This document shows, in pieces, positions 629 to 45,486 of a stretch of DNA of 64,000 bases. Each line of letters begins with the position of its first letter. Position 1 is the first letter of the stretch. The position numbers and the translations under genes were made by a program. Source of the DNA: Kiritimatiellia bacterium. Lineage in GTDB: Bacteria > Verrucomicrobiota > Kiritimatiellia > B70-G9. The stretch lies in assembly GCA_029934055.1 (NCBI GenBank), contig JAOZMZ010000002.1, forward strand, positions 14,489 to 78,488. The letters run 5' to 3'. The notes under the pieces are model-generated. The model was not told where the DNA came from, made no database searches, and saw nothing but the letters and a program-made list of their open reading frames with translations.

Positions 629-706
629 GGTGGGCGTAGCTCAGCTGGTTAGAGCGACAGGTTGTGGCCCTGTAGGTCGCGGGTTCGAATCCCGTCGCTC
701 ACCCCA
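629..706 (+). tRNA. tRNA-His (anticodon GTG), with an encoded G-1 and an encoded 3' CCA
   Basis: I folded this by hand. Acceptor stem GTGGGCG/CGCTCAC (one G-T wobble). D-arm GCTCAGCTGGTTAGAGC. Anticodon stem ACAGG/CCTGT with loop TTGTGGC (U33, anticodon GTG). T-arm GCGGG-TTCGAAT-CCCGT. Discriminator C, then CCA. The extra 5' G at 629 pairs with the discriminator, which is the hallmark of tRNA-His. Confidence 0.85.
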
Positions 707-3405: not shown

Positions 3406-3452
3406 CGTTCAGCGGACCTGATCACCCCCCTGCCATATCCCCCGGTGATCTC

Positions 3453-5498: not shown

Positions 5499-5591
5499 AT
5501 TGGAGCAACTTTATTCATGATGCGCCTGCCGCCTTTCTTTACTATCCCAACCATTAACACTACCTGTAACACCTCGATTTCTGCCAACCAC

Positions 5592-6263
5592 TCACGTCAT
5601 CTTGCGCGTCCGTACCCGCTTACCCGGAACACCGCTCCCTCCCTGCGACTGCGGCCGCTTGATGATCTGCGGGCCCAAACCCCGCTTCCAGATCGGCCAC
5701 TCCACCGTACAGGCTATGCGGTGCACCTCGGGTTTCGCCGGCTGTCCCGAAATCTCGAAGGCCGCTATCGAAAGATAAGGATTCCTTTCCTCCAGCGTTC
5801 TCACAAAACGCAGGAAATCAAAAAATGTGCACTCGGTAACCAGCCGCACCGTGTAGGGCACGAACTTGCGGTCTATCTTCTCCGAACGCTCCCACGGCAC
5901 CACCCCGGGGCTGACCTCCAGTACGGACTCGATATCAATGCCGACTTCACGCCCTGTGCGGTAAATGTATTCCGTACACCATGTCAGCGGATTCTCGCGG
6001 GATGGTATCAATTCGCGGCTCCAGCGCAAAAGCGCGTCCGAAGTCGCCTTGAATTCGGCCTTAAGCTTGGATTCGCCGATGATCGCCAGCTTGGCCTTCC
6101 GCATCTTGGCCTGCAACTCGCCCAGATCCGTGCGCGCTTCACGAAACGTGGCCAGTGACGGCGTCAACACGAACCGAAACAAGCCGTACAGAATGCCGAA
6201 CGCCAACAGCACCGAAAGAACGATCACCTGTTTCTTTTCCCTGCTGAGGTCCGACCAGTTCAT
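5592..6263 (-). CDS. pilO: PilO-like inner-membrane pilus assembly protein
   Basis: A single N-terminal TM helix (VIVLSVLLAFGILYGLFRFVL) is followed by a coiled-coil stretch and then an alpha/beta domain. A 4-nt overlap with the upstream pilN-like gene suggests translational coupling. Position between pilN and pilQ supports the call. Confidence 0.5.
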   Translation of the reverse strand: MNWSDLSREKKQVIVLSVLLAFGILYGLFRFVLTPSLATFREARTDLGELQAKMRKAKLAIIGESKLKAEFKATSDALLRWSRELIPSRENPLTWCTEYIYRTGREVGIDIESVLEVSPGVVPWERSEKIDRKFVPYTVRLVTECTFFDFLRFVRTLEERNPYLSIAAFEISGQPAKPEVHRIACTVEWPIWKRGLGPQIIKRPQSQGGSGVPGKRVRTRKMT

Positions 6264-6847
6264 TCCATCTTCCTCGGCACCGAGGCCACTTCAACCGCAA
6301 ACACCCGCCCCTCCTGCCCGGGCGGCAGTCCCGGGGCCCTCTGCAAACGCTGCAACTTGACGGTGTCCAGAAACTCCTTGAAGGCCTCGCCGGTCCGCAA
6401 AGTCCGAATAAAACTTACCACGATGGCATCCGCCATGTCACCTCGCACACGCCCTCCCAGCCCCATTTTATATAACCTCGCCGGAGTCGGGGGAAGGTCC
6501 TTTTGCCACTTCGGCGGCGGAATCATTATGAACGTCTCACGAACATTTATCCTATCGATCTGCATCTGGGCCGGCACCACGCGGGCGAATTGCAACAACA
6601 CCTCGTGCCAGGAAACCCGCGAGTTCTGCCACGTCTTCAACTCCTCAATGAGTTTCTTGTTGTCCGCCAACGCCTCCTGCATCGCCCGTACATCCTGATA
6701 ATGCGGATCAATCCTGTGATACGCCGCCCGCGTCCGTTTCAGAGCGACCTTCATCGCCCGTACGTGCAGCACCATGCCCGCCAGTGAAAGCACGACGATC
6801 GCAATGATCGCCAGCCCGATCGCCCGGAAAAGAAACAACTGCGTCAT
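6260..6847 (-). CDS. pilN: PilN-like inner-membrane pilus assembly protein
   Basis: The internal start MTQLFLFRAIGLAIIAIVVLSLAGMVLHV gives a single TM helix followed by a periplasmic domain. The ORF-track version extends 87 aa further upstream into a Gly-rich, improbable region. Position between pilM and pilO supports the call. Confidence 0.5.
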   Translation of the reverse strand: MTQLFLFRAIGLAIIAIVVLSLAGMVLHVRAMKVALKRTRAAYHRIDPHYQDVRAMQEALADNKKLIEELKTWQNSRVSWHEVLLQFARVVPAQMQIDRINVRETFIMIPPPKWQKDLPPTPARLYKMGLGGRVRGDMADAIVVSFIRTLRTGEAFKEFLDTVKLQRLQRAPGLPPGQEGRVFAVEVASVPRKME

Positions 6848-6900
6848 CCGCCCCGGATAACGGCGCTCACTTTCCTCCAGGAACTCTACCCTCAGCTTAC

Positions 6901-7986
6901 TCACGTTTCCAGCACCCCCATGGCCGCACCAACCGCCGCTGCAAAACGCGCCTCCTGCCCCTGCAGCTTCTCGGGAAGCGCGGTCGCACCGATGCACTCC
7001 AGCGGGTTCCACACAATCACCTCTCCGGCCACCGCCGAACGAACACAGTCCACCCAGTAGGACGACATCGCCATCCCTCCGCAGAGATAAAAACGGGTGA
7101 CATGACATTCTTCCCGGCGCTCGACGAAATCCCGTGAAATTGACAGCTGCTGCAAGAACTGCTGAGCGGCCTGTGTCACAAACTGCGAAATATCGAAGGA
7201 ACCCTCCTGAATCACTCGCAATGCCACATCTCGGGTAACCCGCATCTTTTTCTCGAAGAGTTCCGCCACCCGATCACCACCAAGAGGAAACTGCCTCGCC
7301 AGAGCCAATTCCCCACCGTTGAAAAATGCCAGCAGAGTGCCCCGCGCCTCACATGCAATGTAGCCGATCGCACCCTCGTCCTTGGAAGGCGGCCCCCACG
7401 TCGCAAACGCATCCAGACCCGCCAGCGATGCAATCTGTACCGATGCCGCCGCCGGTATCCCCGATTCGACAAGCGATAAAACCCCCGCCACCTCAGCTTC
7501 CGGCAGGGCCGCCGCCAGTATTCTGACCTCACCCTCCCGGCGGCTCCCCGCCCCCATACGCACAAAGCCGAGCCGGTATTCCTTCTCCAGCCCCAGATGC
7601 TCCCGGAGACGGCCCTCCAACCCCTTGGCATCAGCCGCCTTCCCCGTCAGGCTCAAGAAACGCACCACGGCCTCCGGACTCGATACCGCCATGCCGGCAT
7701 ATGTCACCCGCCACTCCCGCGGCAACGGCAAAACCGGCCCGCCCGCCTTCCGGTCTTCCTCTTTTTCCGAAGCCAACTCCAATTTCAATGGCGGCAGCAC
7801 ATCGGCATTGACCAGCGTATACCCCTCCTTGCCCCGCCGAATCCATATGAGCTTGAGGCCCGAAGACCCAAGATCCACCCCCAGTGCCTCACTGACCACC
7901 GGCTCCCTGACTACACCTTTAAGGCTGAAGTCCACCACGGCTCCACAAACCTCCTGCCGCGTCGCCCGGGTCGCGTATCTCCGCAA
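6901..7986 (-). CDS. pilM: PilM, the actin-like ATPase-fold pilus assembly protein
   Basis: The N-terminal phosphate-1-like motif EALGVDLGSSGLKLIWI matches the GxDxGS signature of PilM/FtsA. Its length (about 360 aa) fits. It is the first gene of the pilMNOQ arrangement. Confidence 0.75.
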   Translation of the reverse strand: MRRYATRATRQEVCGAVVDFSLKGVVREPVVSEALGVDLGSSGLKLIWIRRGKEGYTLVNADVLPPLKLELASEKEEDRKAGGPVLPLPREWRVTYAGMAVSSPEAVVRFLSLTGKAADAKGLEGRLREHLGLEKEYRLGFVRMGAGSRREGEVRILAAALPEAEVAGVLSLVESGIPAAASVQIASLAGLDAFATWGPPSKDEGAIGYIACEARGTLLAFFNGGELALARQFPLGGDRVAELFEKKMRVTRDVALRVIQEGSFDISQFVTQAAQQFLQQLSISRDFVERREECHVTRFYLCGGMAMSSYWVDCVRSAVAGEVIVWNPLECIGATALPEKLQGQEARFAAAVGAAMGVLET

Positions 7987-8697: not shown

Positions 8698-8704
8698 AAG
8701 GAGG
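8698..8704 (+). promoter_or_regulatory. Shine-Dalgarno sequence (AAGGAGG) for the giant subtilase gene, 5 nt upstream of the GTG start
   Basis: AAGGAGG at 8698-8704, then ATATC, then GTG at 8710. Confidence 0.5.
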
Positions 8705-8709
8705 ATATC

Positions 8710-11700
8710 GTGAAATCGATGGTGGCCGGTTGTTGGGCGTTTCTAGCATTCTGGGGTTCAGCCACGGCGCTTTTCGGAGCCCTGCCGGACAATCCATCCG
8801 GCAATCCAAATCCAGCCGTGCCCGACTATGTACTTACCGTCAGCAGCAGCAACCTCTATAGTCTCCATGCCGCCGGCGCCCCGGTGCAGGCAATTCTGCG
8901 CGACATCGCCCGCGCATCAGGGATAAAAATCCATGTCGCCCCCGACCTCAACACCAAGATAAACGCCGACCTGCGCGACTTGCCCCTGGACAAGCTCCTC
9001 GCTCAACTGGCCGAAAGCCATGCCTTTGTCTACGTCTCTGAAGAAGACGGCATCCATCTGGTCGGCGCCCAAGTAACCTCGCGCAGCAACGAGAAACACT
9101 TATCGCAGGTCGCCACAGTACAGACCGGCAAGACCAAAGCGCGCAGAACAACTTTCATCACCAACTCGGATTCCGATCCGGCACAGCTCCTGCGCGATCC
9201 CGACACCCTCCTGCTGCGAAACGCCTTCATCGATACGCGCGCCGCCGTCGAGGAAGGCGTGCGCCTGTCTGTGCCGCCGGATCTGTCGGCAGCGGAAAAC
9301 AACCCTTACTTTCTCGTGCAGTTCGATCATCCCGTCGGCTCCGCCGATCGTGAACTTCTCAGCGGTGTCGGAGCCGAAGTTCTAAACTATGTTCCCCATC
9401 GCGCCTATCTGGTCCGCATCGCCCCGCAACTTCGCAGCCGGCTCGCCGAAGTACAGGGCGTTCGTTACGTTACCCCCTACCATCCATACTTCAAACTCGC
9501 CCCGCCGCTCCTCGCGTCTCTCATAGGGGTCCCCGACCAGGCCGCCACGGCACAGGTCCGCCGCGGCAAGTTCAACGTGATGATATTTCCGGGGGCTCCC
9601 GATTGGAAAAAGGAACTATCTGCCATCGGCGTCTCTGTGGGCACGGTGGTAACGGCCGGCGGCCGTACGTTCGCCACCGTCCACTGTCCGCCGGAAAAAA
9701 TCCGCGCCCTGGCCGGATGCGCCGCCGTGCAGTGGATCGAACCCTTCGCGCCGCCGACCCTTCTCAACGATATAGGCAACAGGTACACCCACGCCACCCG
9801 CCTGCGTCTCTCTCATCCTTCGCTCGACGGACAGGGCGTCATCATCGGCGTGATGGACACGGGCATTGATTTCAATCACCGGACCTTCGCCGAGGATCCC
9901 TCCCTCCCCACCACGACGGGTCAAAACACCCGCATAGTATATTACGAAACGCGTCCCAATCCCGAAAGCGACGGCATCCCCGGCGACAATGTCGGCCACG
10001 GCACCCATGTCTCGGGCACGATTCTCGGGAATGGAGCCTTGTCGGAAACGGTCGTCAAAGCCCCGGGGTCCGGGGCCGGCCCCTACGCAACCAATGCCTT
10101 CGCCGGAGTGGCCCCCGCCGCGCGACTCGTCATGCTCGAAGGATTCGCCGTCGAGGGATACGGCTACACGGCCACCGAGGCCGCCGAACTAGAATATTCC
10201 CATGGCGCACGTATTTCCGCGAATAGTTGGGGTAATCCCGAGCTTTTCGAATACGGTACGGAAAGTGCCGTGTGGGACGCACTGGTGCGCGATGCCGATA
10301 CCAACAGTTCCGGAAACCAGCAGCTCATCGTATTCTTCGCCGCCGGCAACGACAGCTACGGCAACGTGGATGGAACCGGAGGAACCGCCTCGCGGATCCG
10401 CGAACAGGCGGCCGCCAAGAACGTCATCTCGGTCGGCGCTCTGGAAACCCCCCGCTACGCAACCAACCTGCCGGAATATGCCTCGCTGTGGGAGTCCGAC
10501 TCCGACTGGCAGGTGGCCTGGTTCAGCTCCCGCGGTCCCGTCTCTTCAACCGACCTGCGCGTCAAGCCCGACATCGTCGCCCCCGGATCATTCATTCTTT
10601 CGGCCCAGTCGAAGGATACCAACCCCGATGAAGTCGAAAATCCGCCCCTGCCGAACCGCGACTATCGGCACGGCAACGTGGATTCGGGAACCAATTACGC
10701 TTTCATGAGCGGCACCTCCATGGCCACCCCCATCGCCGCCGGCGCCGGCGCTCTGGTCTACCAGTATTATACCAACACTTATGAAACCACCCCCAGCCCG
10801 GCCATGATGAAAGCCATCCTCGTCAATGGCGCACGCATGGTCAACCGGGTGCTCTATTCCTATCCCGCTTACGGCACCGCGTCCACCAACATCGCCCAAG
10901 GCTGGGGCATGGTGGACGTCTCCCGCGCCGTGGACGGCCCCGGATTGCATGACTCCGACGACGTGGTATGGCTCGACGAAGATCAGACCGCCACGCTCCA
11001 GACGGGCGAAGAATATTCCTACCAGTACTCCGTGGCCGAGGGCGAAGGCGGACTCAAAATCACTCTGGCATGGACCGACGACCCCGGAACACCCGGAAAC
11101 GCCGTCCAGCTCGTCAACGACCTCGATCTGATCGTTATCGCCCCCGATGGGCGCGGTTATGTCGGCAACTACTTCGACTCCGACGGCTGGTCCTCCGCCA
11201 TTGTCGCCGATCCCACCAACAGCGTCTACGGCGATCGCTACAACAACGTCGAGCAGGTCGTGATACCGGAGCCGGACGCCGGAACCTATTATATCCGCGT
11301 CATCGGCCATGAAGTCCCCGGATCCGGCCAGAATTTCGCCTTGGCTATCATGAAAGGAATCTCGCCGGTCCCCGCCCATACTCAGGGCGGCCACCCGGCC
11401 ATGGTCCTCGACAGCAACCAGTATCCGATCGTCGCCTGGTCAGGCGACGACGGCGGCGGCCATGATCAGATCTTCGTGAAGCGCTGGCAGGGAGCCACCG
11501 GCGACCAATCCGATATCGGGCACTGGAAACGCCTCGACGAACGCTGGACCGACATGAATGACTCCGCCAGGATCACAGGAATAAGCAAGACCCTCGAAGA
11601 TTCCGAAGACCCCTGTATCGCTGTCTACGGCGAGCTGATCTACGTCGCCTGGAAAGAAGAAGCTCCCCTTTCGGGACCTGCCCATATTCACCTGCGCTGC

Positions 11701-14700
11701 TGGAACGGGACCAACTGGATAGAATTGGGCCAGTCCGCCCACGACACCGGACTCAGCGGCGAAAATTCCTACAGTGCCTCCGATCCATCCATCTCCCTGA
11801 CCTCCAACGGTCTGCCGATAGTTGCCTGGAGACAGCCCGTCCTCAACGGTACCGAGTACAACGAGCAGATCCGTGTCGTCCGCTGGGACGGCACCAACTG
11901 GCTGGGCTATGCCGGTTCGGATTCGAACGGCATTCCGGGAACCGGACAGTCGACAATTACGCCTACGATGATCAGCGACGCCGCCGGCCGCCCCGTCATC
12001 GCCTGGTACGGCCTGCCCTCCGGCGGCGGCAGCCCGGGCATACACGTCTATCGCTGGGATGGAAGCGCATGGGTGAGCATCGGGAGCCCCGTCTCGGCAA
12101 CCGGCGTCCAGGAACCCTCCCTGGCCCTCGCCCCCAACGGGGATATCTATCTGACGTGGGTCCAGTTCGGCTCCGGAATCGACGAACCCAACACCCAGAT
12201 CTACGCGGCCCACTATTCAGGGGGGGGCTGGCATGAATTCGGCGGATCAATGACCTACCCCGGCATCAGCTCCTCAAGCAATACCGTCACCGATCCCGCC
12301 GGCCCGGCCATCTCCATCGCCCCCGACGGCACGGTCTATGTAGCCTGGCAGGCCGGCAATAACGATCCGAATTCGCTTTTCCTGAAAAAATACTCCGGCG
12401 GCGCATGGGTCGGTATACTTCAGAGCGATGAACCCCCCGGGATCGCCCGCAGTGGCGGAATCGCCACGAACACCGTCCTCTTGGCGGACGGCTACGGCCT
12501 GCCGGTGGTCTCGTATTCGGCCATCGTCAGCGGGGACAAACAAATCTTCACCTACCGCCTGGTCACCGATGAGCTTCCCCCGGCCTTCACGGGGCTGAAG
12601 GACGCCGCCGGAGGCACCAACAGCAATGTGTCTCTTTCCTGGGATCAGGCCGTGGATACCTCCACCACCATCTACTATCACATCTATCAAAGCACAAACT
12701 TCTGGCTCTGCGGGCAACAGCCCTCCTGTGACGCCGATGACGTTTTCAATCACGAAATCGCCGTTGTCACCAATACCACCTCCTACGAAGTCACCGGTCT
12801 GCAAAACGACCGGCTGTGGTGCTTCGGCGTGCGCGCCGAAGACACCAACGGCCTCCTCGACGCCAACACCGTCATGCACTCCGCCGGACCAATCGCCGGC
12901 GGCGGCGATACCGATGGTGACTGCCTCGAAAATTCGCTCGAATTCGCCGCCGGTACCGAGCCCTGCCTGCAGGATACCGACGGAGACGGAATGTGGGACG
13001 GCTGGGAATGGACCTATTCCACCAACAACCCTGCACATACCAACACCTTCTCCCTGGATCCCCTCGACAACGGCAACGACCGCGTCCGCACCGCCGAACC
13101 CGATGACGGCGACCCCGACCAGCTCCCGGATGCCGACCTCGACAACGACGGCGCTTCCACCCTTGAGGAATTCGAGTGGTGGTACACCAATACATACCTG
13201 AGCACCGGCTGCGACGCCACCGGACCCACCAACCGCAGCGGCCCCGACCCCACCAACCCCGACAGCGACGGCGACGGCATGAACGACGGCTGGGAAATTT
13301 TCAACGACCTCAATCCGGGGGATCCTTCCGACGGCGCCGTTGACGCCGACGGAGACGGTGTCGCCAACAGTAATGAGTTCGCCTACGGCATCGACCCCAC
13401 CAACCCCGACAGCGATTCCGACGGCATAACCGATGGAGACGAAATTCAAACCTATGGAACCGACCCGTCTCTGCCGGATACCGACCGCGACGGGCTCGAT
13501 GACGGGTTTGAACTCCAGATAGGCTCCGATCCTCTCGACGCCGACAGCAACGACAGCGGCGTGAGTGACGGTGATACTTTCCAACTCGGCTGGGACGATC
13601 CTACCCTGCCGATCACCAACTTCAACCTGCTCCTCTCCGAAAACTTTGAACCCTCGTCACCCACCCGCAACCAGTGGACTCACTACTGGACCGACGGGAA
13701 TTATCCCTACGACTTCTGGCATTTTTCCACCGCCGAGCCCGCCCCGAAAACAAACACGGTCGTCTACATCACGGATCACTCCACCAGCACGGTCTACCGC
13801 ATGGCCGCCGACCCCAGCGGCACCAACGTGGATGCGACTTACAGTACCGGCAGCATCGTTCAATGCGCCCTTGAGAGTCCCGCCATCGACGCTTCCGCAG
13901 TTGAAAACCTGTTCGTCTCCTGGAACGAATTCTACGCCACCGAACCGCAATGGGATATCATGGAACTCCAGGCCCGTGCCGGAAGCGACAGTAACTGGTT
14001 CGTCGTCAGCGATACACGCTCGGGCTTCAGCTATGGATGGACCAATCGCGTTGCGGACCTCACCCGCTTCGCCGGCATGACCAATGTCCATCTGCGTTTC
14101 TTCTTCGCCGCCCAAAACTCTAACAACAACGCCTACGCCGGCTGGTTCGTCGACGACGTGCGCGTTTACGAAGGTGTAACCATCACCGGCTGGGTGCGCG
14201 ATATCAACGGGCGCCCGATCGCCGGCGCTGAAGTCATGGCCATCGGCCGCGGACAGGTGACCAATGCCGTCCACGGACATCGCTACGTCCTGCCCGGTAA
14301 AGTGTTCGGCACACGTACCACCACCGCTGACGGTTCTTACCAAATCGCCGGCCTGCCCCAGGGGCACTATTACGTCAAGGCGTCTCAAGCCGGCTATGTG
14401 GATGAATTCTACAATGGCCCGCTCTTCTCCGGCCAGTACGGCTTCGGAAACCTGCTCAATCCCGGCGTCCCCGACAGGGATCAGGTCACCTCCGCGGGCT
14501 GGGTCAACCTTACCGGCACCGGCCAGCGCGTTGAGTGTGATTTCGAGCTCGAAAAAGGCAGCGGCCGCGGCTACCTGGGAGTGATGCTCGCCAACGGTGC
14601 CGGATCCTCCTACGAAGTGTTCCTCAACGGCCTCTCGGTAGAAATCTGGAACGGCGTCACCAATTCCGATACGAACGCCCCGCCGGTGGCCGACCTCGAA

Positions 14701-17700
14701 CCCTACCGATCATCTACCAATACGACGCTCTGGAATAACCATCCCGACTGGATCACCAACCCGGTCGAGCCCCTCCTCATCGCCGACATCGCCCCCGGCA
14801 GTCACCTGGTGAGCGCCGGAACGAATCTGACGCTCTATCCCCCGGCCGAAGTGCTCGTACGCGAGGGAGAAATAAGCCTGGTGAACATCTTCACCAACCA
14901 GGGCGAAGGCCGTCTCTACGTCACCGCCGATGACGACGGCGCCTATCCCGTCTGGCTGGACGGACGCGATACCGGAGAGCTGACCCCGGTCCTGCTGGCC
15001 GTTAAAGCCGGAGAGCACACCATATGCATTATTCCCACCAATTCACTTCGCGTCGCCCCCCAAACCGCCGATGTACCGCTCGGCGTCCGCGTAAAGGTCG
15101 CCTTTTCCACCAACGATATCAGCGGCAACCCCGGTTCTCTCTTGATTCAGACCGTCGACGTCAACGGCAATGCCGTCACCGGCGCCGCGGTCTACGTCGA
15201 TGAACGCCGCGTCGAGCCCGATGAGGTCTCCCAGGGATACACCAACCTGACCCCCACGATCGTCAACAACCTTCTGCCCGGCAGTCACCTCGTGACCGTC
15301 TCCAAGGACGGTTACGCCGCCGCCGAACTGCGCCCCATCGCCATCGGTCAAGGTATCCAAAGCGAGATCACCTTCGTCCTGCATGAAGCCGATAGCGACT
15401 ACGACGGCGTGGGCGACTGGACGGAAATCAGCGGCTACACCAACCGCTTCCTCTACGCCCGGGACGACGACCCCGATAACGACGGGCTCAACAACCTCTT
15501 CGAGTTCGACCAGTACCGCCTCTTCGATGTGCGCCTCAATATCTTCAACGCCGACAGCGACGGCGACGGCATGCCCGACGGCGATGAGCTCGGCTACGAC
15601 GGCATCACCAACCGCCTCGCCCTTTCCAGCCTGAGCACCAACGCCGTCCAGGGCACGGATACCGTCCGGGCATATTTCGTCGGCCGCTACCTCGAAGGTA
15701 TCGACAACTTCGGTCAGGACCATGTCAACCCGGCCGTCGAGTGCGACCGCTTCGAGGCCAGCACGGTCTCTCATCCGATGATCCCCGTCCCCGCCGTCGA
15801 TCCCGCGCTTACCGTCTTCGGAGGAATACCGCCCACGGTCTCCGAACGCGCCGTGGACGTGGGCCATAATCCGGGCGCCGTACTCCTCGCCGATGCCCTT
15901 CCCGACCAGCAGGATACCGACGGCGATACACTCTGGGACGGCTTCGAGTTCCAGTTCGGCCGCGATACCGTCGCCGGCCTTGATCCCACGGAATGTTCCG
16001 ACCCCAACGCCGACCCGGACTACGACGGCGCCTCCAACTACCGTGAATTCCTCGGCGCCGACGGCCTGGCCAATACGAACGACTGGTCGGATCCCACCAA
16101 CCCCGACAGCGATGGCGACGGCATGCCCGATGGATGGGAATACGACCACTCTCTCGATCCGACCGATCCCTCCGACGCCGCCGAGGATTCCGATTCCGAC
16201 GGCCTGGCCAACAGCAATGAGTACGTTCATGGCACCAATCCTCAACTCCCCGACACCGATAAAGACTACCTGCCCGACGGCCCGGAAGTGTTGCAGTACC
16301 AATCCAACCCGCTCAAAACCGACACCGACGGAGACCACCTCATTGACGGACGCGAGGTTTGGGATTGGAACACCAACGGCGTCTTCGACGGGGGCTTCTT
16401 CCACTTCCCAAGCAACCACATCCCCGGTGACCTGGACGGCGACGGCATGCTCGACGGTCCGTCCGACTGGGATACCGACGGCGACGGTATGCCCGACGGT
16501 TTCGAAGTCATTGACGCCTTCGGCAACGTCCGCAGCCCGGCCCTGGATCCCTACAACCCCAACGACGGTGACGAAGACTACGATGGCGACGGGCTTAATA
16601 ACCTTGAAGAATATCTCGTGTGGAACGCACAATACGGCAATCCGCCCGGATCCTTCGATACCAACTACGGATATGTCGTCTGGGATTACTCCACCGACCC
16701 GTTCAACCCCGACAGCGACGGCGACGGCATGCCCGATGGTTGGGAAGTCATCTACGGCCTCCATCCCATGGATCCCATCCCCGTGGACGGCGTCCTCCAG
16801 GTCCGCTATCCCGAGCTCGGCGCCGATGGTGATGTTGATCATGACGGACTCTTCAACGAACGTGAATATTCGGTGCGCTTCCTGATCAATCCCGGCGCCG
16901 ACAGCAATTCGATCACCGAGGCCAGTACCAGTCCCTGGAATCCCGACAGTGACGGCGACGGGCTCGGCGACGGCGAAGAAGACCGTTCCTTCCGCTGCAG
17001 CCCCGTCGTCCAGGACACCGACCGCGATGGACTCACCGACGGTGTATCGCTTACCGGTCACTGGGCCGAAGTTGAATCCGCCCCGCGCCTGGCGAACGGC
17101 GCCATGAGCGTCAGCAATCACTACGACCGTGCGCTGAACGACCTCTGGCGACTCGTCTGGCCTAAGTTCCAGGATCTGCCCAACTGGGAACAGGTGACGC
17201 CCAACACAAACAACCCCCTGCCGGAACCCCGCTGGGGCCCCGCCGCTACCTATATTCCGGTTTTCGAAATAAAAACCCGGGAAATAGACAGCGGTCTCAA
17301 GACGACGAATACCGTGCTGCTTGATAACCGCCAGATCGTGATCATCGGCGGGCGCGACGGCGTGGAACGGTTCACCAATATTTGGGAATTCGTCATCCGC
17401 TCGAATTCATGGGTGCTCAGTGATGCCACCCTCGACGACATAGGCCTCTCCGAAGGTCTCAGCGAGGTCAGCGCTGTCACCCTGCTGGGATATTTCAACA
17501 CCCGTGCCGACCAGTGCCCGTGCGATAATCAACCCTATTACTGCGATGGCACCTCTTTCGGCCTTCCCAAGAACCGTCCCTGGGACAACGGCTACGGCCG
17601 TTCCAGCTTCGACTGGACCTATATCCTCGGCGGCTGGGACGAAATCCACAACTATTACCAGCCCGTCCCCATGCCGTCCTACTACTACAAATCCACCGAC

Positions 17701-20700
17701 GACCAGGACCCGATCACCGAAGAGGATCCGGTCGGCGCCGAAGGGTACAACAGCGGGCCGGTTTCCGACGAAAGCCTCATACAAATCGGAACACTTACCG
17801 AAGGACAGCAGGCGAGCAACGAGTGGGCCGTCGGCGCCGAGGGCATCAACGACGGTGCTGTAACCAACGTTACACGCGTAGCGATCGGCTCCGGTGCCAC
17901 CAACGGTCTCTTCTTCGACGGTCTCAATATCCCCGCCGGCTCCACCATCATCTCCGCTAACATGGACTTGAACATCACCGCCTACGGCGCCTCTACCAAC
18001 AACCTGCACATCGTCGGCGAATTGCTTTCCAATGGTCAATCCGATAACGACTACACCAACGATCCACCCAGCTATCGCCGCGTCTTCAGCGCATTCATCA
18101 GCTCGACCCAGGATTTCACCATCTCGGCGGCCGACCTCAGCGCCTTCAAAACCAACATCGACATCACCGCGATCGTCACCGAAATGGTGGCCCGGCCGGA
18201 CTGGGCAGCCCAAAGCGCCGGCTTCCTGATCTATGGAGAAACGCTGGGCGCCTCGAACGAACTACGGGTCGGAGAATCGGTCTTGCACGTAGTCTATCGC
18301 CAGCCGGCGGCGGAATATGACTACAACGGCTTCTTCTTCGATGACGTCTACTTGCGCACGAACTGCGAGGATATCCTTTCCGCTGAACTTGTTCTCGACC
18401 TGACCTCCACCGGCATCTCGTCCAACGACCTGCACCTGCGCGGCGAATTGTGGCTCGACGGCAAGTCTTCCGTAGACTACACCGGCATCCCCGTCACAAA
18501 CCGCTTGACGATGTCTCAGTTCCTGAGTTCCGAACTCCAGTTCACCGTCGTGGTCACCGGCTACACCGTCGTGGCCCTCGACGTCACTCCCATCATCGCC
18601 GAAATGCTCGCACAGGATAACTGGGCGGCCGAAAGCGCCGGCTTCATCCTCTGGGGGGACACTCACGGATCCACCCTCTATGAATATGCCGGCAAAACAA
18701 CCCTGCGCGTCACCTATCGGCCGGGCTACAAGAAGAAAGCCTACTGGACCAGCGGTACCCACGTCCAGATATCCGGAGAAATGCCCGGCGTTCGCAAGTC
18801 CGTCGTCCAGGTCTACGATTACAAGCGCGACCGGATAGTGGCCTTCGGAGGAATCGGAGGGCGTACCGTCTACGCCGACACCTACGAAGGAACTCCCGTC
18901 TGGAACGATCTGGACGGAGAAGTGGTCTATGCCGACCCGCAATCAATCGGCGATCCCCACATGATACTTTGGACCAAGATCATTCCCGCCCACAGTCCGC
19001 CGGCACGCTGGGGACACTGTATGGTCTACGACCCGGTCGACGAATGCGTCCTCCTGTTCGGCGGTTTCGACGCCGACAACCGCCCGCTCAATGATCTCTG
19101 GAAATACAAAGACGGCGACTGGAGTCATATCACGGTCTTCGAGGATTCCCAGGTGCCGCCCCCGCGCGGTGGAGCCTCGATGATTTACTTCGGCGCCTTC
19201 ATGTACGATCGCGGTTACGCCGACTATTGCCTCTCTTGCGATCACCAAGCCCCGGTCCTCTTCGGAGGTACGGACGGGTCCCACTACTTCAACGACACGT
19301 GGGTCTATGACTTCGAGTCCGCACGCTGGATCATGGTCAACCCCGACGGCGAACAATCTCAGGGGCCCCAACCTCGCGCCTTCGCGGTATTCGTCTTCGC
19401 CCAAAACGCCGGCTGGTCGCCGGATCCCGAAGGCACCGCAACCTACGAGGATCTCGACCCCGCCGACCGTTGCGCAACACCCGCAGCCTATCTCTTCGGC
19501 GGCCGTTGCGGCACGCTGCCGACGTCCGCCGATACGGACTACGATTACGTCAGCGATGGAGAAGAACACGCCATCGGCGGCCCGGCCGCCGGGCACGACC
19601 CGCGCGTCAATGCCCTGATCCCCAACACCGATACCAACGAAAGTCTGCCGTTCTGCTTCCTCCAAATCGGTTCTCTCGTGGCCGATACCGGCAGCCGCGG
19701 CACCATCGCCAACCTGGAAGCCCTCTCCTATGAGGAAGGGGATGACTCCGGTGACTACGCTCCCGCCTTTGATCTTCCCTTCCAGGGATACCCACTACAG
19801 CCCAACAGCAATACCAATATCTTCGATTCGGGCGTAGACGCACGACTCCCTCAGTTTACAAACCTGTGGTACCACCGTGACGGCGGCGACGACCCCTTCG
19901 GCCCCGGCAACGCCTGGGAACTCGGCATCCCCAACCCGGACGCCGTGGGCACCGACGCCGCCCCCGATCACGCCCACAGCGGACGCTGGTGCTTCGGAAC
20001 CGACCTCGACGGGCGTTACCCGGACGATGCTATCTGTGAACTGTATTCCCCGCTTTTCAGCCTCACCCTGCCGCCCGCCGCCGCCACTTGCTCCAATAAC
20101 CCGAACAGCTTCTTCCTCGTCTTCTATGAATGGCTCGACCTCCACGACACCAACGATGCCGTGCGCCTCGACGTCATCTGTCCGCGCACCCCCGCCGACA
20201 TCCTCACTCGATCCGGCACCAACGTGGTCAACATACTCTCCGACCGCAACAGCAATTATAATACTGACGGCGCCTGGCGCCGCGTCGTCGTCTCCCTCGA
20301 TCCGGTTGCCAACGAAAGCAATCTGTACCTCCGCTTCACCCTGCAATCCGACAATGACGGGAATGCCGGTGGATGGTACATAGACGACATCAGCATTCTT
20401 CAGGGCGCGGAAATCAGCGGCATTCTCTCCAACTCCAGCGCGCCCTTCGCCTACGGCGATGTGGCGGTATTCGGCGGAGATAACTTGGCCGGAGCCATGG
20501 ACGTCACCAAGACCGACGCCAACGGCTACTTCGAATTCGGCCTTCTGCCCCTCGGCGTCTATCGCGTCGCCACCGTCGGCACCCTTTTCGATCCCATCGC
20601 GATGAGCAGCACCGGCTGGAATTACACCCTCGGCACGTCCAGTATTCCGCCCCTCGTGGTCAGCACGGTCACCCCCGGCAGCCCGACGGCTATCGCCTGG

Positions 20701-20868
20701 CCGGCCGTGCCCGGCATGAACTATCAACTCGAGTACACCACCAACATGATCACCTCGCCGTGGCAGATTCTGACCACCATTACGGCCTCCAGCACCAACG
20801 AAGAATATCTGGATTACTCCACAAACGGCCTGCGCTTCTACCGCGTACGCTTCACCGGTTCCCCTTGA
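8710..20868 (+). CDS. Giant secreted multidomain subtilisin-like serine peptidase (S8), 4052 aa. Domain order: signal peptide, STN/secretin-N-like domain, I9-like propeptide, S8 catalytic domain, proprotein-convertase P-domain, beta-propeller-like W-repeats, FN3, multiple TSP3 Ca-binding repeats, carboxypeptidase-regulatory-like domains, Kelch repeats, C-terminal FN3-like tail.
   Basis: - S8 catalytic triad motifs: GVIIGVMDTGIDFNH (Asp), HGTHVSGTILG (His), GTSMATPIAAGAGALV (Ser).
- P-domain: LKITLAWTDDPG...VNDLDLIVIAPDG.
- Six or more repeats of type PIVAWxG...W(D/N)G(T/S)(N/A)W.
- More than ten D-x-D-x-DG-x-x-DGWE TSP3-like repeats (e.g. NPDSDGDGMPDGWE).
- Kelch-like PARWGHCMVYD...LLFGG.
- GTG start with a strong SD. 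Confidence 0.9.
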   Translation: MKSMVAGCWAFLAFWGSATALFGALPDNPSGNPNPAVPDYVLTVSSSNLYSLHAAGAPVQAILRDIARASGIKIHVAPDLNTKINADLRDLPLDKLLAQLAESHAFVYVSEEDGIHLVGAQVTSRSNEKHLSQVATVQTGKTKARRTTFITNSDSDPAQLLRDPDTLLLRNAFIDTRAAVEEGVRLSVPPDLSAAENNPYFLVQFDHPVGSADRELLSGVGAEVLNYVPHRAYLVRIAPQLRSRLAEVQGVRYVTPYHPYFKLAPPLLASLIGVPDQAATAQVRRGKFNVMIFPGAPDWKKELSAIGVSVGTVVTAGGRTFATVHCPPEKIRALAGCAAVQWIEPFAPPTLLNDIGNRYTHATRLRLSHPSLDGQGVIIGVMDTGIDFNHRTFAEDPSLPTTTGQNTRIVYYETRPNPESDGIPGDNVGHGTHVSGTILGNGALSETVVKAPGSGAGPYATNAFAGVAPAARLVMLEGFAVEGYGYTATEAAELEYSHGARISANSWGNPELFEYGTESAVWDALVRDADTNSSGNQQLIVFFAAGNDSYGNVDGTGGTASRIREQAAAKNVISVGALETPRYATNLPEYASLWESDSDWQVAWFSSRGPVSSTDLRVKPDIVAPGSFILSAQSKDTNPDEVENPPLPNRDYRHGNVDSGTNYAFMSGTSMATPIAAGAGALVYQYYTNTYETTPSPAMMKAILVNGARMVNRVLYSYPAYGTASTNIAQGWGMVDVSRAVDGPGLHDSDDVVWLDEDQTATLQTGEEYSYQYSVAEGEGGLKITLAWTDDPGTPGNAVQLVNDLDLIVIAPDGRGYVGNYFDSDGWSSAIVADPTNSVYGDRYNNVEQVVIPEPDAGTYYIRVIGHEVPGSGQNFALAIMKGISPVPAHTQGGHPAMVLDSNQYPIVAWSGDDGGGHDQIFVKRWQGATGDQSDIGHWKRLDERWTDMNDSARITGISKTLEDSEDPCIAVYGELIYVAWKEEAPLSGPAHIHLRCWNGTNWIELGQSAHDTGLSGENSYSASDPSISLTSNGLPIVAWRQPVLNGTEYNEQIRVVRWDGTNWLGYAGSDSNGIPGTGQSTITPTMISDAAGRPVIAWYGLPSGGGSPGIHVYRWDGSAWVSIGSPVSATGVQEPSLALAPNGDIYLTWVQFGSGIDEPNTQIYAAHYSGGGWHEFGGSMTYPGISSSSNTVTDPAGPAISIAPDGTVYVAWQAGNNDPNSLFLKKYSGGAWVGILQSDEPPGIARSGGIATNTVLLADGYGLPVVSYSAIVSGDKQIFTYRLVTDELPPAFTGLKDAAGGTNSNVSLSWDQAVDTSTTIYYHIYQSTNFWLCGQQPSCDADDVFNHEIAVVTNTTSYEVTGLQNDRLWCFGVRAEDTNGLLDANTVMHSAGPIAGGGDTDGDCLENSLEFAAGTEPCLQDTDGDGMWDGWEWTYSTNNPAHTNTFSLDPLDNGNDRVRTAEPDDGDPDQLPDADLDNDGASTLEEFEWWYTNTYLSTGCDATGPTNRSGPDPTNPDSDGDGMNDGWEIFNDLNPGDPSDGAVDADGDGVANSNEFAYGIDPTNPDSDSDGITDGDEIQTYGTDPSLPDTDRDGLDDGFELQIGSDPLDADSNDSGVSDGDTFQLGWDDPTLPITNFNLLLSENFEPSSPTRNQWTHYWTDGNYPYDFWHFSTAEPAPKTNTVVYITDHSTSTVYRMAADPSGTNVDATYSTGSIVQCALESPAIDASAVENLFVSWNEFYATEPQWDIMELQARAGSDSNWFVVSDTRSGFSYGWTNRVADLTRFAGMTNVHLRFFFAAQNSNNNAYAGWFVDDVRVYEGVTITGWVRDINGRPIAGAEVMAIGRGQVTNAVHGHRYVLPGKVFGTRTTTADGSYQIAGLPQGHYYVKASQAGYVDEFYNGPLFSGQYGFGNLLNPGVPDRDQVTSAGWVNLTGTGQRVECDFELEKGSGRGYLGVMLANGAGSSYEVFLNGLSVEIWNGVTNSDTNAPPVADLEPYRSSTNTTLWNNHPDWITNPVEPLLIADIAPGSHLVSAGTNLTLYPPAEVLVREGEISLVNIFTNQGEGRLYVTADDDGAYPVWLDGRDTGELTPVLLAVKAGEHTICIIPTNSLRVAPQTADVPLGVRVKVAFSTNDISGNPGSLLIQTVDVNGNAVTGAAVYVDERRVEPDEVSQGYTNLTPTIVNNLLPGSHLVTVSKDGYAAAELRPIAIGQGIQSEITFVLHEADSDYDGVGDWTEISGYTNRFLYARDDDPDNDGLNNLFEFDQYRLFDVRLNIFNADSDGDGMPDGDELGYDGITNRLALSSLSTNAVQGTDTVRAYFVGRYLEGIDNFGQDHVNPAVECDRFEASTVSHPMIPVPAVDPALTVFGGIPPTVSERAVDVGHNPGAVLLADALPDQQDTDGDTLWDGFEFQFGRDTVAGLDPTECSDPNADPDYDGASNYREFLGADGLANTNDWSDPTNPDSDGDGMPDGWEYDHSLDPTDPSDAAEDSDSDGLANSNEYVHGTNPQLPDTDKDYLPDGPEVLQYQSNPLKTDTDGDHLIDGREVWDWNTNGVFDGGFFHFPSNHIPGDLDGDGMLDGPSDWDTDGDGMPDGFEVIDAFGNVRSPALDPYNPNDGDEDYDGDGLNNLEEYLVWNAQYGNPPGSFDTNYGYVVWDYSTDPFNPDSDGDGMPDGWEVIYGLHPMDPIPVDGVLQVRYPELGADGDVDHDGLFNEREYSVRFLINPGADSNSITEASTSPWNPDSDGDGLGDGEEDRSFRCSPVVQDTDRDGLTDGVSLTGHWAEVESAPRLANGAMSVSNHYDRALNDLWRLVWPKFQDLPNWEQVTPNTNNPLPEPRWGPAATYIPVFEIKTREIDSGLKTTNTVLLDNRQIVIIGGRDGVERFTNIWEFVIRSNSWVLSDATLDDIGLSEGLSEVSAVTLLGYFNTRADQCPCDNQPYYCDGTSFGLPKNRPWDNGYGRSSFDWTYILGGWDEIHNYYQPVPMPSYYYKSTDDQDPITEEDPVGAEGYNSGPVSDESLIQIGTLTEGQQASNEWAVGAEGINDGAVTNVTRVAIGSGATNGLFFDGLNIPAGSTIISANMDLNITAYGASTNNLHIVGELLSNGQSDNDYTNDPPSYRRVFSAFISSTQDFTISAADLSAFKTNIDITAIVTEMVARPDWAAQSAGFLIYGETLGASNELRVGESVLHVVYRQPAAEYDYNGFFFDDVYLRTNCEDILSAELVLDLTSTGISSNDLHLRGELWLDGKSSVDYTGIPVTNRLTMSQFLSSELQFTVVVTGYTVVALDVTPIIAEMLAQDNWAAESAGFILWGDTHGSTLYEYAGKTTLRVTYRPGYKKKAYWTSGTHVQISGEMPGVRKSVVQVYDYKRDRIVAFGGIGGRTVYADTYEGTPVWNDLDGEVVYADPQSIGDPHMILWTKIIPAHSPPARWGHCMVYDPVDECVLLFGGFDADNRPLNDLWKYKDGDWSHITVFEDSQVPPPRGGASMIYFGAFMYDRGYADYCLSCDHQAPVLFGGTDGSHYFNDTWVYDFESARWIMVNPDGEQSQGPQPRAFAVFVFAQNAGWSPDPEGTATYEDLDPADRCATPAAYLFGGRCGTLPTSADTDYDYVSDGEEHAIGGPAAGHDPRVNALIPNTDTNESLPFCFLQIGSLVADTGSRGTIANLEALSYEEGDDSGDYAPAFDLPFQGYPLQPNSNTNIFDSGVDARLPQFTNLWYHRDGGDDPFGPGNAWELGIPNPDAVGTDAAPDHAHSGRWCFGTDLDGRYPDDAICELYSPLFSLTLPPAAATCSNNPNSFFLVFYEWLDLHDTNDAVRLDVICPRTPADILTRSGTNVVNILSDRNSNYNTDGAWRRVVVSLDPVANESNLYLRFTLQSDNDGNAGGWYIDDISILQGAEISGILSNSSAPFAYGDVAVFGGDNLAGAMDVTKTDANGYFEFGLLPLGVYRVATVGTLFDPIAMSSTGWNYTLGTSSIPPLVVSTVTPGSPTAIAWPAVPGMNYQLEYTTNMITSPWQILTTITASSTNEEYLDYSTNGLRFYRVRFTGSP

Positions 20869-24211: not shown

Positions 24212-24364
24212 AACTTTCGAACCACCCCGCCGGAATCCCTGAGGGGCCTGTCACGAGGGAATATCCCCTTTCCCTCACGCGGATGCAAACTCTCCCGGGC
24301 TTGATCAACCGCCTTCTCAATCTGCTTGACAGTTACCCGTTTTCATGTTAACAAAAAAGTAACG

Positions 24365-45400: not shown

Positions 45401-45486
45401 CGGCCATATTTTCCCCCAAGGCGGGGGATGTCAAGAAGCCGCAATTCGGCTATCCTGCCCCGCCGCAACAGTGTACATTGTTATCC

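Follow-up and report, generated by a model that had tools for sequence, protein, structure and literature searches.

We analysed a stretch of 64,000 nucleotides from a Kiritimatiellia bacterium (NCBI GenBank assembly GCA_029934055.1, contig JAOZMZ010000002.1, positions 14,489 to 78,488 of the forward strand), in the following called the window, and in particular the giant gene at its positions 8710..20868 on the + strand. The gene is a single intact open reading frame (ORF) for a protein of 4052 amino acids (aa). Judged from its sequence, the protein has a complete subtilase active site, looks like an active S8 enzyme, and represents a family conserved in a clade of Kiritimatiellia, namely subtilases of roughly 3900-4050 aa with a fixed architecture. 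With moderate confidence we read it as a zymogen that would be exported by the Sec pathway and become a giant, Ca-loaded extracellular subtilase targeted to glycans or to a matrix. The gene had been pointed out in an original prediction made from the letters of the DNA without database searches.

The Peptidase S8 family of Pfam (PF00082) matches with its complete profile (positions 1-288/288; 148 bits, cut-off 21.8, E 4e-43). In an alignment of seven sequences the residues of the catalytic triad, D383, H430 and S670, are invariant together with the oxyanion-hole residue N547, and their codons were confirmed directly; the triad that had been proposed near the N-terminus is therefore retained, and its loss was not seen. 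Furthermore, in a phmmer search of the PDB, aa 368-880 find the KP-43 protease (1wmd, E 9e-47) and can be aligned with its residues 15-432, beta-barrel included. SubHal is aligned by the same segment, again including the C-terminal beta-barrel, and a weak match to Pfam PPC covers aa 771-864. We assign the catalytic unit to the KP-43 type, as the catalytic domain is contiguous with the beta-barrel and can be aligned over the whole enzyme.

The reading frame itself holds. The codons for the GTG start and the TGA stop were read directly from the sequence, and a complete ortholog (P0167) likewise starts with GTG and has the N-terminus 'VKS'. The predicted protein has a mass of 438 kDa, an isoelectric point of 4.2 and a net charge of -351. 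The GC content at the three codon positions (GC1/2/3 = 0.61/0.47/0.76) follows a pattern shared with other genes of the window. Since the long antisense ORFs within the gene all lie in one relative frame and have a GC1 of about 0.77, we regard them as shadows, in agreement with the original prediction. An exhaustive search of representative sequences gave a copy of 4048 aa (P0017) that is 99.8% identical over the full length and intact on an independent JGI metagenome contig (locus L007), where the gene order is the same as in the window. At the DNA level the two copies differ by 25 substitutions (17 synonymous, 8 nonsynonymous) and one in-frame indel of 3 nt; neither a frameshift nor a stop interrupts the copy. 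Another protein of 4052 aa is recorded in the cluster of P0017, from an NCBI contig of 81 kb. Because of this independent copy, and because orthologs are collinear over more than 3700 aa, the ORF is not a product of chance or of assembly.

Next, we asked how far the family extends. A word-indexed search with aa 1-880 returned only three close relatives (48-57% identity), all ending at contig ends; those with a named source come from 'Lentisphaerae' or 'Kiritimatiellae' metagenome-assembled genomes (MAGs). A scan of the GTDB species genomes with the N-terminal region gave three loci, two titled as Kiritimatiellia/Kiritimatiellae MAGs and one from an unclassified MAG. At two of these three loci, more than 3700 aa are encoded before the gene passes the edge of the 21 kb that were fetched; orthologs of this type (L004 and L005) are collinear with aa 46-2793 at 48% identity, and then again over the Kelch part. 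The complete ortholog P0167, which has 3871 aa and occurs on 11 contigs, is 45.5% identical over aa 40-2958 and 38.7% identical over aa 3368-4051. Per 100 aa, the identity stays fairly even, between 26% and 63%, with the exception of an insert at aa 2960-3367; this argues that the whole chain is under constraint. In total, the family comprises at least 8 clusters at 50% identity, with the architecture kept end to end. The description of this architecture as rare needs to be qualified in so far as it recurs in a clade of Kiritimatiellia.

Ahead of the protease we find a region which the original prediction, although its list of modules was largely right, had missed, that is, an N0/STN domain and two pro-domains. 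Scanned by themselves, the first 147 aa align with the N0 regions of the NCBIfam families SctC, EscC/YscC/HrcC, PilQ and HofQ (E 1e-5 to 0.02), and there are weak matches to Pfam STN (13.5 bits, cut-off 28.4) and FecR_C. With aa 30-135 as the query, phmmer gave 159 matches in an exhaustive search of 1.84 billion representatives. The best of those outside the family are secretins in which the domain occurs several times in tandem; Pfam labels these copies type_II_gspD_N0, STN and FecR_C. Comparing nine N-termini of the family with six secretin N0 segments, among them that of the secretin neighbouring the giant gene, hhalign reports a probability of 98.8% and E 5e-17 over 73 columns. AlphaFold2 (AF2) models the region as a two-helix alpha/beta unit with a pLDDT (predicted local distance difference test) of about 70-77. 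Despite the score of Pfam STN below its cut-off, these profile matches place the region in the N0/STN superfamily. Members of this superfamily (the secretin N0 domain, the signalling domain of TonB-dependent transducers and the C-terminal domain of FecR) are periplasmic protein-protein docking modules. Since a Pfam scan finds neither Secretin (PF00263) nor Secretin_N anywhere in the 4052 aa, the protein lacks the secretin pore domain and is not a secretin. We see, rather, what by its profile matches is a secretin-type N0/STN domain ahead of subtilase pro-domains, which is an unusual placement. We were not able to find a description of such a combination in the open-access literature, nor anything relevant there about the giant protein in Kiritimatiellae.

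Two observations on the use of this domain elsewhere may be added. The secretins P0018, P0019 and P0021 (1175-1354 aa) have 6-8 tandem N0/STN domains before the pore, so that their periplasmic array is unusually long. In P0113 and P0114, this STN-like N-terminal domain is fused to HEAT-repeat proteins of 268-418 aa, which shows that its use is not limited to secretins and proteases.

A disordered linker connects the N0/STN domain with the pro-domains. In the AF2 model the latter occupy aa 200-256 and 287-345, each with a beta-alpha-beta-beta-alpha-beta fold (pLDDT 80-93), and a Foldseek search of the PDB with the N-terminal model returned tandem ferredoxin-like/ACT pairs only, a result that does not address the N0 domain. 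The region is kept in all aligned S8 relatives, one of which (P0123) has a weak match to Inhibitor_I9. From their position and modelled fold, the two ferredoxin-like domains would constitute a duplicated I9-type pro-peptide. Such pro-peptides of subtilases are intramolecular chaperone-inhibitors that are removed by autoprocessing. The more remote S8 relatives P0004-P0006, which come from Verrucomicrobiota and elsewhere, begin at the pro-domain, without the N-terminal domain.

The protease is followed by more than 3000 aa of non-catalytic modules, as had been predicted, and beta-sandwiches, a propeller and TSP3 repeats could be identified among them. The AF2 model of the propeller, built from six sequences, has seven four-stranded blades (pLDDT 80, predicted template modelling score pTM 0.86); the W-rich repeats had thus been rightly taken for a propeller, but there are seven blades and not six. 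Its top structural neighbours in a Foldseek search of the PDB are GH33 sialidases, GH145 BT3686, PL42 FoRham1 and the PL24/25 ulvan lyases (E about 1e-9 to 1e-8), and Pfam BNR_4 matches a short stretch with 27.3 bits. A sequence profile of the propeller found no solved relative in the PDB, and no catalytic residues could be mapped onto it from the sialidase-fold/BNR_4-type neighbours; we assume by analogy a role in non-catalytic binding. The FN3-like domain that comes next corresponds to an FN3 module of the original prediction. Here it stays below the Pfam cut-off of 25 bits, and the same segment passes it with 26 bits in the ortholog of locus L006.

Thrombospondin type 3 (TSP3) repeats bind Ca, and two putative Ca-binding arrays of them are present. 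Pfam TSP3_bac (PF18884) matches five stretches (38.4 bits, cut-off 25). We count 16 strict DxDxDGxxDxxE motifs and, more loosely, about 26 Asp/Asn-rich motifs inside the two arrays, out of 30 in the whole protein, so that the earlier figure of at least 10 repeats was right about their presence and too low about their number. The NCBIfam model of CglD (NF033765) reaches 100.5 bits against a cut-off of 400 (E 6e-29), restricted to the repeat region at aa 2458-2679, and the MtsD model is likewise only partially matched by the TSP3 region.

Between the arrays lie further beta-sandwiches. For the first MAM-like domain, Pfam finds no match to InhA-like_MAM (PF20773) in the giant protein itself; the orthologous segments of P0102 and P0167 match this family with 35 bits (cut-off 26.9). 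Profiles of the MAM-like domains found no solved relative by sequence. The series that follows is matched by Pfam CarboxypepD_reg (57 bits) and PEGA (38.7 bits); in the protein, the former matches three stretches. The carboxypeptidase-regulatory modules and the Kelch modules had both been named before, and both have Pfam matches, those of the Kelch families being above the cut-off. The Kelch matches, at aa 3421-3561, are to Kelch_KLHDC2_KLHL20_DRC7 (PF24681; 77 bits, cut-off 50), Kelch_3 (60.7 bits), Kelch_4 (54.3 bits) and also Kelch_1.

Kelch blades flank a tandem module on both sides; in a self-comparison, aa 2806-2903 on one side resemble aa 3457-3542 on the other. The tandem module of about 145 aa is real (aa 3065-3180 against 3206-3320, 40% identity, E 4e-23). 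Since it is absent from P0167, occurs once in L004 and L005 and twice in the protein of the window, it is a recent, lineage-specific insert of variable copy number inside the Kelch-repeat region. The original prediction, which had seen two tandem modules of about 140 aa, called them unassigned; this can be refined to a variable insert that weakly resembles DNRLRE/CBM96 domains. The alginate-binding CBM96 is a relative of the DNRLRE domains (PMC9971899). Neither a word-indexed homolog search with the module nor a comparison of a profile of its four copies with the PDB found anything.

In the C-terminal section a cassette of a MAM-like and a CarboxypepD_reg domain is repeated, as aa 1765-1889 resemble aa 3842-3953; the second MAM-like sandwich also has weak matches to choice_anch_J (E 0.056) and Reelin_subrepeat-B. 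The last module is FN3-like, and Pfam and NCBIfam scans gave no family match for it. A similar FN3-like tail of about 70 aa, with the motif [FYW]YR[VIL] within the last 25 residues, closes several large secreted-looking proteins. Of 213 ORFs with 200 aa or more, only 5 have the motif, and all five are the tail-bearing proteins; a profile of four such tails retrieved only four weak fragments. The tail may be a sorting or retention module. One of the tail-bearing proteins, of 1691 aa (ORF 24326-29401, + strand), has as its sole family match a weak MdoG-like one (periplasmic glucan biosynthesis) at aa 610-985.

The signal peptide, the S8 domain, the TSP3-type modules and the extreme acidity make an extracellular, Ca-loaded protease with binding modules the natural reading. 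We infer the export route, the autoprocessing, the binding of Ca and of glycans and the substrate of the giant subtilase as follows. The pro-region, made up of the N0/STN domain, the linker and the two I9-type pro-domains, would keep the KP-43-type catalytic domain folded yet inactive on its way through the periplasm. The outer membrane would be crossed, probably via a type II-like pathway, and autocatalytic cleavage would then free the pro-region, the N0/STN domain included. Since this domain is upstream of the pro-domains that are removed, it could not permanently anchor the mature enzyme, and a role in the periplasmic stage before activation is plausible by analogy. The mature protein of about 3700 aa would be a long acidic chain with the protease at one of its ends, stiffened by Ca on about two dozen TSP3 motifs. 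This chain would carry putative glycan-binding modules: the propeller, the MAM-like, CarboxypepD_reg and PEGA domains, the Kelch blades with their DNRLRE/CBM96-like inserts, and the C-terminal FN3-like module. Going by their domain types, these candidates may bind glycans or matrix polymers, and they would hold the enzyme on material rich in polysaccharide or glycoprotein, be it substrate particles or the cell's own envelope. There, the protease would digest matrix-embedded proteins for a polymer-degrading Kiritimatiellia bacterium.

A number of points weigh against this reading. Pfam I9 (PF05922) has no match in the giant protein. The propeller shares 10-16% identity with its structural neighbours, at TM (template modelling) scores of 0.45-0.57. 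The match of the NCBIfam model DNRLRE_dom (NF033679) is below its cut-off (20 bits, cut-off 34, E 5e-4) and concerns copy 1 of the insert; neither copy 2 nor the single copies in L004 and L005 are matched. At the GTDB locus L006, from a Kiritimatiellae MAG, the ortholog is split into ORFs of 800 aa and 854 aa (9962-14879) with a truncated N0 region, for which decay of the gene, a frameshift or an error in the assembly may be responsible. Finally, in the sequence and in the Pfam and NCBIfam scans we found no lipobox in a valid position, no C-terminal transmembrane (TM), LPXTG or PEP-CTERM tail and no autotransporter barrel. As we found neither an anchor nor a link to a secretion system, the protein could be free, matrix-bound or cell-bound. 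Of the predicted tethered, Ca-stabilised extracellular protease/adhesin, the reading as an extracellular, Ca-loaded protease with binding modules is supported, and the tether is not. Besides the signal peptide, the protein has one further TM-like segment, at aa 3278-3297, which is a stretch of beta-strand. A lipoprotein signal at 'VAGC' (aa 5-8) was considered and rejected: Cys8 precedes the hydrophobic core instead of following it.

The genes around the giant gene were compared with those at the orthologous loci. In the window, a cluster of a PilM-like gene, two small genes in the positions of PilN and PilO and a secretin gene diverges from it, and this order is shared with the strain copy at L007; the two small genes have no family match. 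The neighbouring secretin has a long low-complexity region rich in Ala, Glu and Gly ahead of its N0 domain. In the gap of 724 nt between the PilM cluster and the giant gene no ORF, promoter consensus or Rfam family was detected, and scans for promoters and terminators on both flanks found nothing. Downstream there are a radical-SAM gene and housekeeping genes. The + strand has a strongly negative GC skew (-0.11 to -0.34) in every 2-kb bin over the 64 kb, regardless of gene orientation; since the 12-kb giant gene is on this C-rich strand, it is probably oriented head-on to replication.

The ortholog loci have another order: LptD, epimerase, inositol monophosphatase, pseudopilin, zinc-finger protein, helicase, WD40 protein, coiled-coil protein and then the giant gene. 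The pseudopilin, of the T2SSG type, is on the other strand (L006 and L008), the zinc-finger protein is of the DnaJ type (L004 and L006) and the helicase of the DinG type. A secreted WD40/DUF11/TSP3 protein is encoded beside the orthologs at L001 and L004-L006, and every ortholog is directly preceded by the gene of a secreted coiled-coil protein that is small, with about 141 aa and, in L008, 283 aa. Neither of these two has a counterpart in the window, where the non-coding gap takes the place of the coiled-coil gene. The secretin is not adjacent at L001, L004-L006 and L008. Since the adjacency is seen only in the window and its strain copy, a link to the PilM/secretin cluster is not supported by conservation, and we have downgraded a functional coupling to it.

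Could the protein be something other than a matrix-targeted enzyme? It might be primarily a structural surface fibre or adhesin that, like the TSP3-rich CglD or MtsD of myxobacteria, makes cells cohere with each other or with a substrate; the S8 domain would then have no part in nutrition and would act in self-maturation or in the processing of other surface proteins. Non-catalytic sequence makes up more than 80% of the protein, the models of CglD and MtsD are partially matched, the adjacent WD40/DUF11/TSP3 and coiled-coil genes of the orthologs suggest a set of surface proteins, and the FN3-like tail is common to other large secreted proteins. On the other hand, the CglD match stays at 100 of the required 400 bits and within the repeats, no anchor was identified, and the catalytic apparatus is strictly kept across 45% divergence, as expected for an enzyme in use. 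We consider a chiefly structural role the main alternative, possible but rather doubtful, bearing in mind that the roles of adhesin and enzyme are not mutually exclusive. At the other extreme, the ORF could result from misassembly, be open by chance in GC-rich DNA or belong to a pseudogene in decay; this would fit the split ortholog at L006, and is effectively refuted by the intact gene in an independent assembly, by substitutions between the copies that are mostly synonymous with the sole indel in frame, by full-length collinear orthologs, by a codon-position GC as in real genes and by the many Pfam domains in one frame.

A further alternative concerns the N0/STN domain, which could dock the protein by beta-strand augmentation onto a secretin machine, either the adjacent PilM/secretin system or a type II secretion system (T2SS). 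Secretin N0 domains bind GspC/PilP in this way. The protease would then be associated with the machine, being piloted, gated or anchored at the secretin or processing its substrates. The domain is indeed a bona fide secretin-type N0/STN domain and resembles the N0 region of the neighbouring secretin (phmmer within the window, E 1.6e-4); the PilM/secretin cluster is divergently adjacent in the window genome and in the strain copy, and in L006 and L008 pseudopilin genes of the T2SS type are close by, at a distance of a few genes. However, at the other orthologous loci LptD, the epimerase and the DinG helicase are found instead of the cluster, pseudopilin genes are numerous in genomes of the Planctomycetes-Verrucomicrobia-Chlamydiae (PVC) group, STN-like domains are also fused to the unrelated HEAT-repeat proteins, and a domain upstream of the pro-domains would be lost at normal subtilase maturation. 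We therefore regard such a machine-bound protease as unlikely. A related, more speculative proposal, to which we give an equally low probability, would see two targeting devices: the N0/STN domain of the pro-region docking the zymogen to a secretin/pilus-type machine for export or gated activation, and the '...RFYRV' tail as a sorting or retention tag specific to Kiritimatiellia or the PVC group. If true, either device would constitute a novel signal for secretion or for anchoring, in a phylum that has been studied little.

Table 1. Positions of the features discussed; coordinates refer to the window unless a locus is named, and aa numbers to the giant protein.
Feature	Position	Strand	Evidence or remark
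tRNA-His (GTG anticodon)	630-706	+	Rfam; sole RNA gene detected in the window
HisKA (histidine-kinase-like) gene, 742 aa	1177-3405	-	family match
Divergent cluster: PilM-like gene, two small genes in PilN/PilO positions, secretin	3453..7986	-	Pfam Secretin, Secretin_N, PilM_2
Secretin, 681 aa	3453-5498	-	Pfam Secretin, Secretin_N
PilM-like gene	6901-7986	-	Pfam PilM_2
Shine-Dalgarno AAGGAGG	8698..8704	+	5 nt before GTG; read from sequence
Sec-type signal peptide, aa ~1-24	8710..8781	+	sole strongly hydrophobic N-terminal segment; equivalents in orthologs
Secretin-type N0/STN domain, aa ~40-122	8827..9075	+	profile matches, phmmer, hhalign, AF2
Two tandem ferredoxin-like (I9-type) pro-domains, aa ~198-346	9301..9747	+	AF2 fold, position
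Peptidase S8 catalytic domain, aa 374-733	9829..10908	+	Pfam PF00082
D383	9856-9858	+	catalytic Asp, DTG motif
H430	9997-9999	+	catalytic His, HGTH motif
N547	10348-10350	+	oxyanion-hole Asn, AAGN motif
S670	10717-10719	+	catalytic Ser, GTSMA motif
KP-43-type C-terminal beta-barrel / PPC-like domain, aa ~760-880	10987..11349	+	phmmer vs PDB
Seven-bladed beta-propeller, sialidase/BNR_4-like, aa ~893-1285	11386..12564	+	AF2, Foldseek, internal repeats
FN3-like domain, aa ~1296-1390	12595..12879	+	Pfam fn3 (PF00041) 21 bits, cut-off 25
TSP3 repeat array 1, putative Ca-binding, aa ~1398-1632	12901..13605	+	TSP3_bac, motifs, self-similarity
MAM-like beta-sandwich 1, aa ~1640-1822	13627..14175	+	ortholog matches; paralogous to aa 3842-3906
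CarboxypepD_reg / PEGA beta-sandwich series, aa ~1824-2225	14179..15384	+	Pfam
TSP3 repeat array 2, putative Ca-binding, aa ~2228-2781	15391..17052	+	partial CglD match, motifs, repeats
Kelch-type blades, N-terminal part, aa ~2800-2960	17107..17589	+	self-similarity; weak Kelch matches if scanned alone
Inserted module copy 1, weakly DNRLRE/CBM96-like, aa ~3035-3197	17812..18300	+	NF033679 below cut-off
Inserted module copy 2, aa ~3198-3345	18301..18744	+	40% identical to copy 1; no family match of its own
Kelch propeller blades, C-terminal part, aa ~3368-3650	18811..19659	+	Pfam Kelch families
MAM-like / choice-of-anchor-J-like beta-sandwich 2, aa ~3715-3898	19852..20403	+	paralogous to aa 1765-1854
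CarboxypepD_reg-like domain, aa ~3900-3960	20407..20589	+	Pfam E 3e-4 if scanned alone; paralogous to aa 1824-1889
C-terminal FN3-like module ending ...GLRFYRVRFTGSP, then TGA	20632..20868	+	conserved in P0167
Tail-bearing end, giant protein	20632-20865		
Tail-bearing end, ORF 24326-29401	29150-29401		
Tail-bearing end, ORF 45310-48204	47990-48204		
Tail-bearing neighbour of the ortholog, locus L006	L006 6781-9063		
Tail-bearing end, ortholog P0167	C-terminus		
Coiled-coil gene, L001	L001 1670-2095		
Coiled-coil gene, L004	L004 9396-9821		
Coiled-coil gene, L005	L005 9392-9790		
Coiled-coil gene, L006	L006 9264-9671		
Coiled-coil gene, L008	L008 9118-9969		

The Kiritimatiellia, which have received little study, are anaerobes that break down complex polymers of marine and gut settings. 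If our reading of the protein as a matrix-targeted subtilase is correct, the KP-43-type unit combined with sialidase-like, Kelch, MAM and CBM-like modules would be a concrete candidate for the attack on glycoproteins and matrices, and might supply modular enzymes stabilised by Ca. How diderm PVC bacteria move very large proteins over the outer membrane could be approached through the N0/STN domain of the pro-region and through the shared C-terminal module. If none of this holds, what is left is an unusually large but conventional multi-domain subtilase.

Several known systems resemble parts of the protein. The best structural neighbours of the modelled propeller are the sialidase-fold/BNR_4 propellers (GH33, GH145 BT3686, PL42 FoRham1 and PL24/25), although the GH33 sialidases have 6 blades and our model has 7. 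With the secretins (GspD, PilQ, SctC), the TonB-dependent transducers and FecR the protein shares the N0/STN superfamily, to which its N-terminal domain of about 85 aa belongs; unlike secretins, it has no pore domain, and the N0/STN domain sits in the pro-region of a protease. Long bacterial TSP3 arrays are also known from CglD and MtsD of Myxococcus. However, CglD has no protease domain, the giant subtilase has no lipoprotein signal, and with 100 instead of 400 bits it is not an equivalog of CglD.

As for the proteases themselves, the cell-envelope proteinases of Gram-positive cocci (lactococcal PrtP, the streptococcal C5a peptidase ScpA and SpyCEP), to which there are weak local S8 matches, are also large multi-domain S8 enzymes, with the protease held on FN3-type spacers at the surface of the cell. 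They differ by a PA-domain insert, an LPXTG wall anchor, a length of 1100-2000 aa and other non-catalytic modules. Since neither a PA domain in the Pfam scan nor an LPXTG motif in the sequence is found in the giant subtilase, we place it outside this group. By its sequence, the catalytic unit goes with KP-43 and SubHal, 'high-molecular-mass' subtilisins of Bacillus (1wmd, 5fax), which have the S8 domain followed by the beta-barrel and the same order of D, H and S, and whose whole enzyme of 434 residues can be aligned. KP-43 is, however, a mature protein of about 43 kDa without further modules, whereas the giant subtilase has about 3170 more residues, a pro-region with an N0/STN domain and a duplicated pro-domain, and a diderm PVC bacterium as its host. 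All in all, it belongs to the multi-domain secreted S8 proteases and is not a new kind of system.

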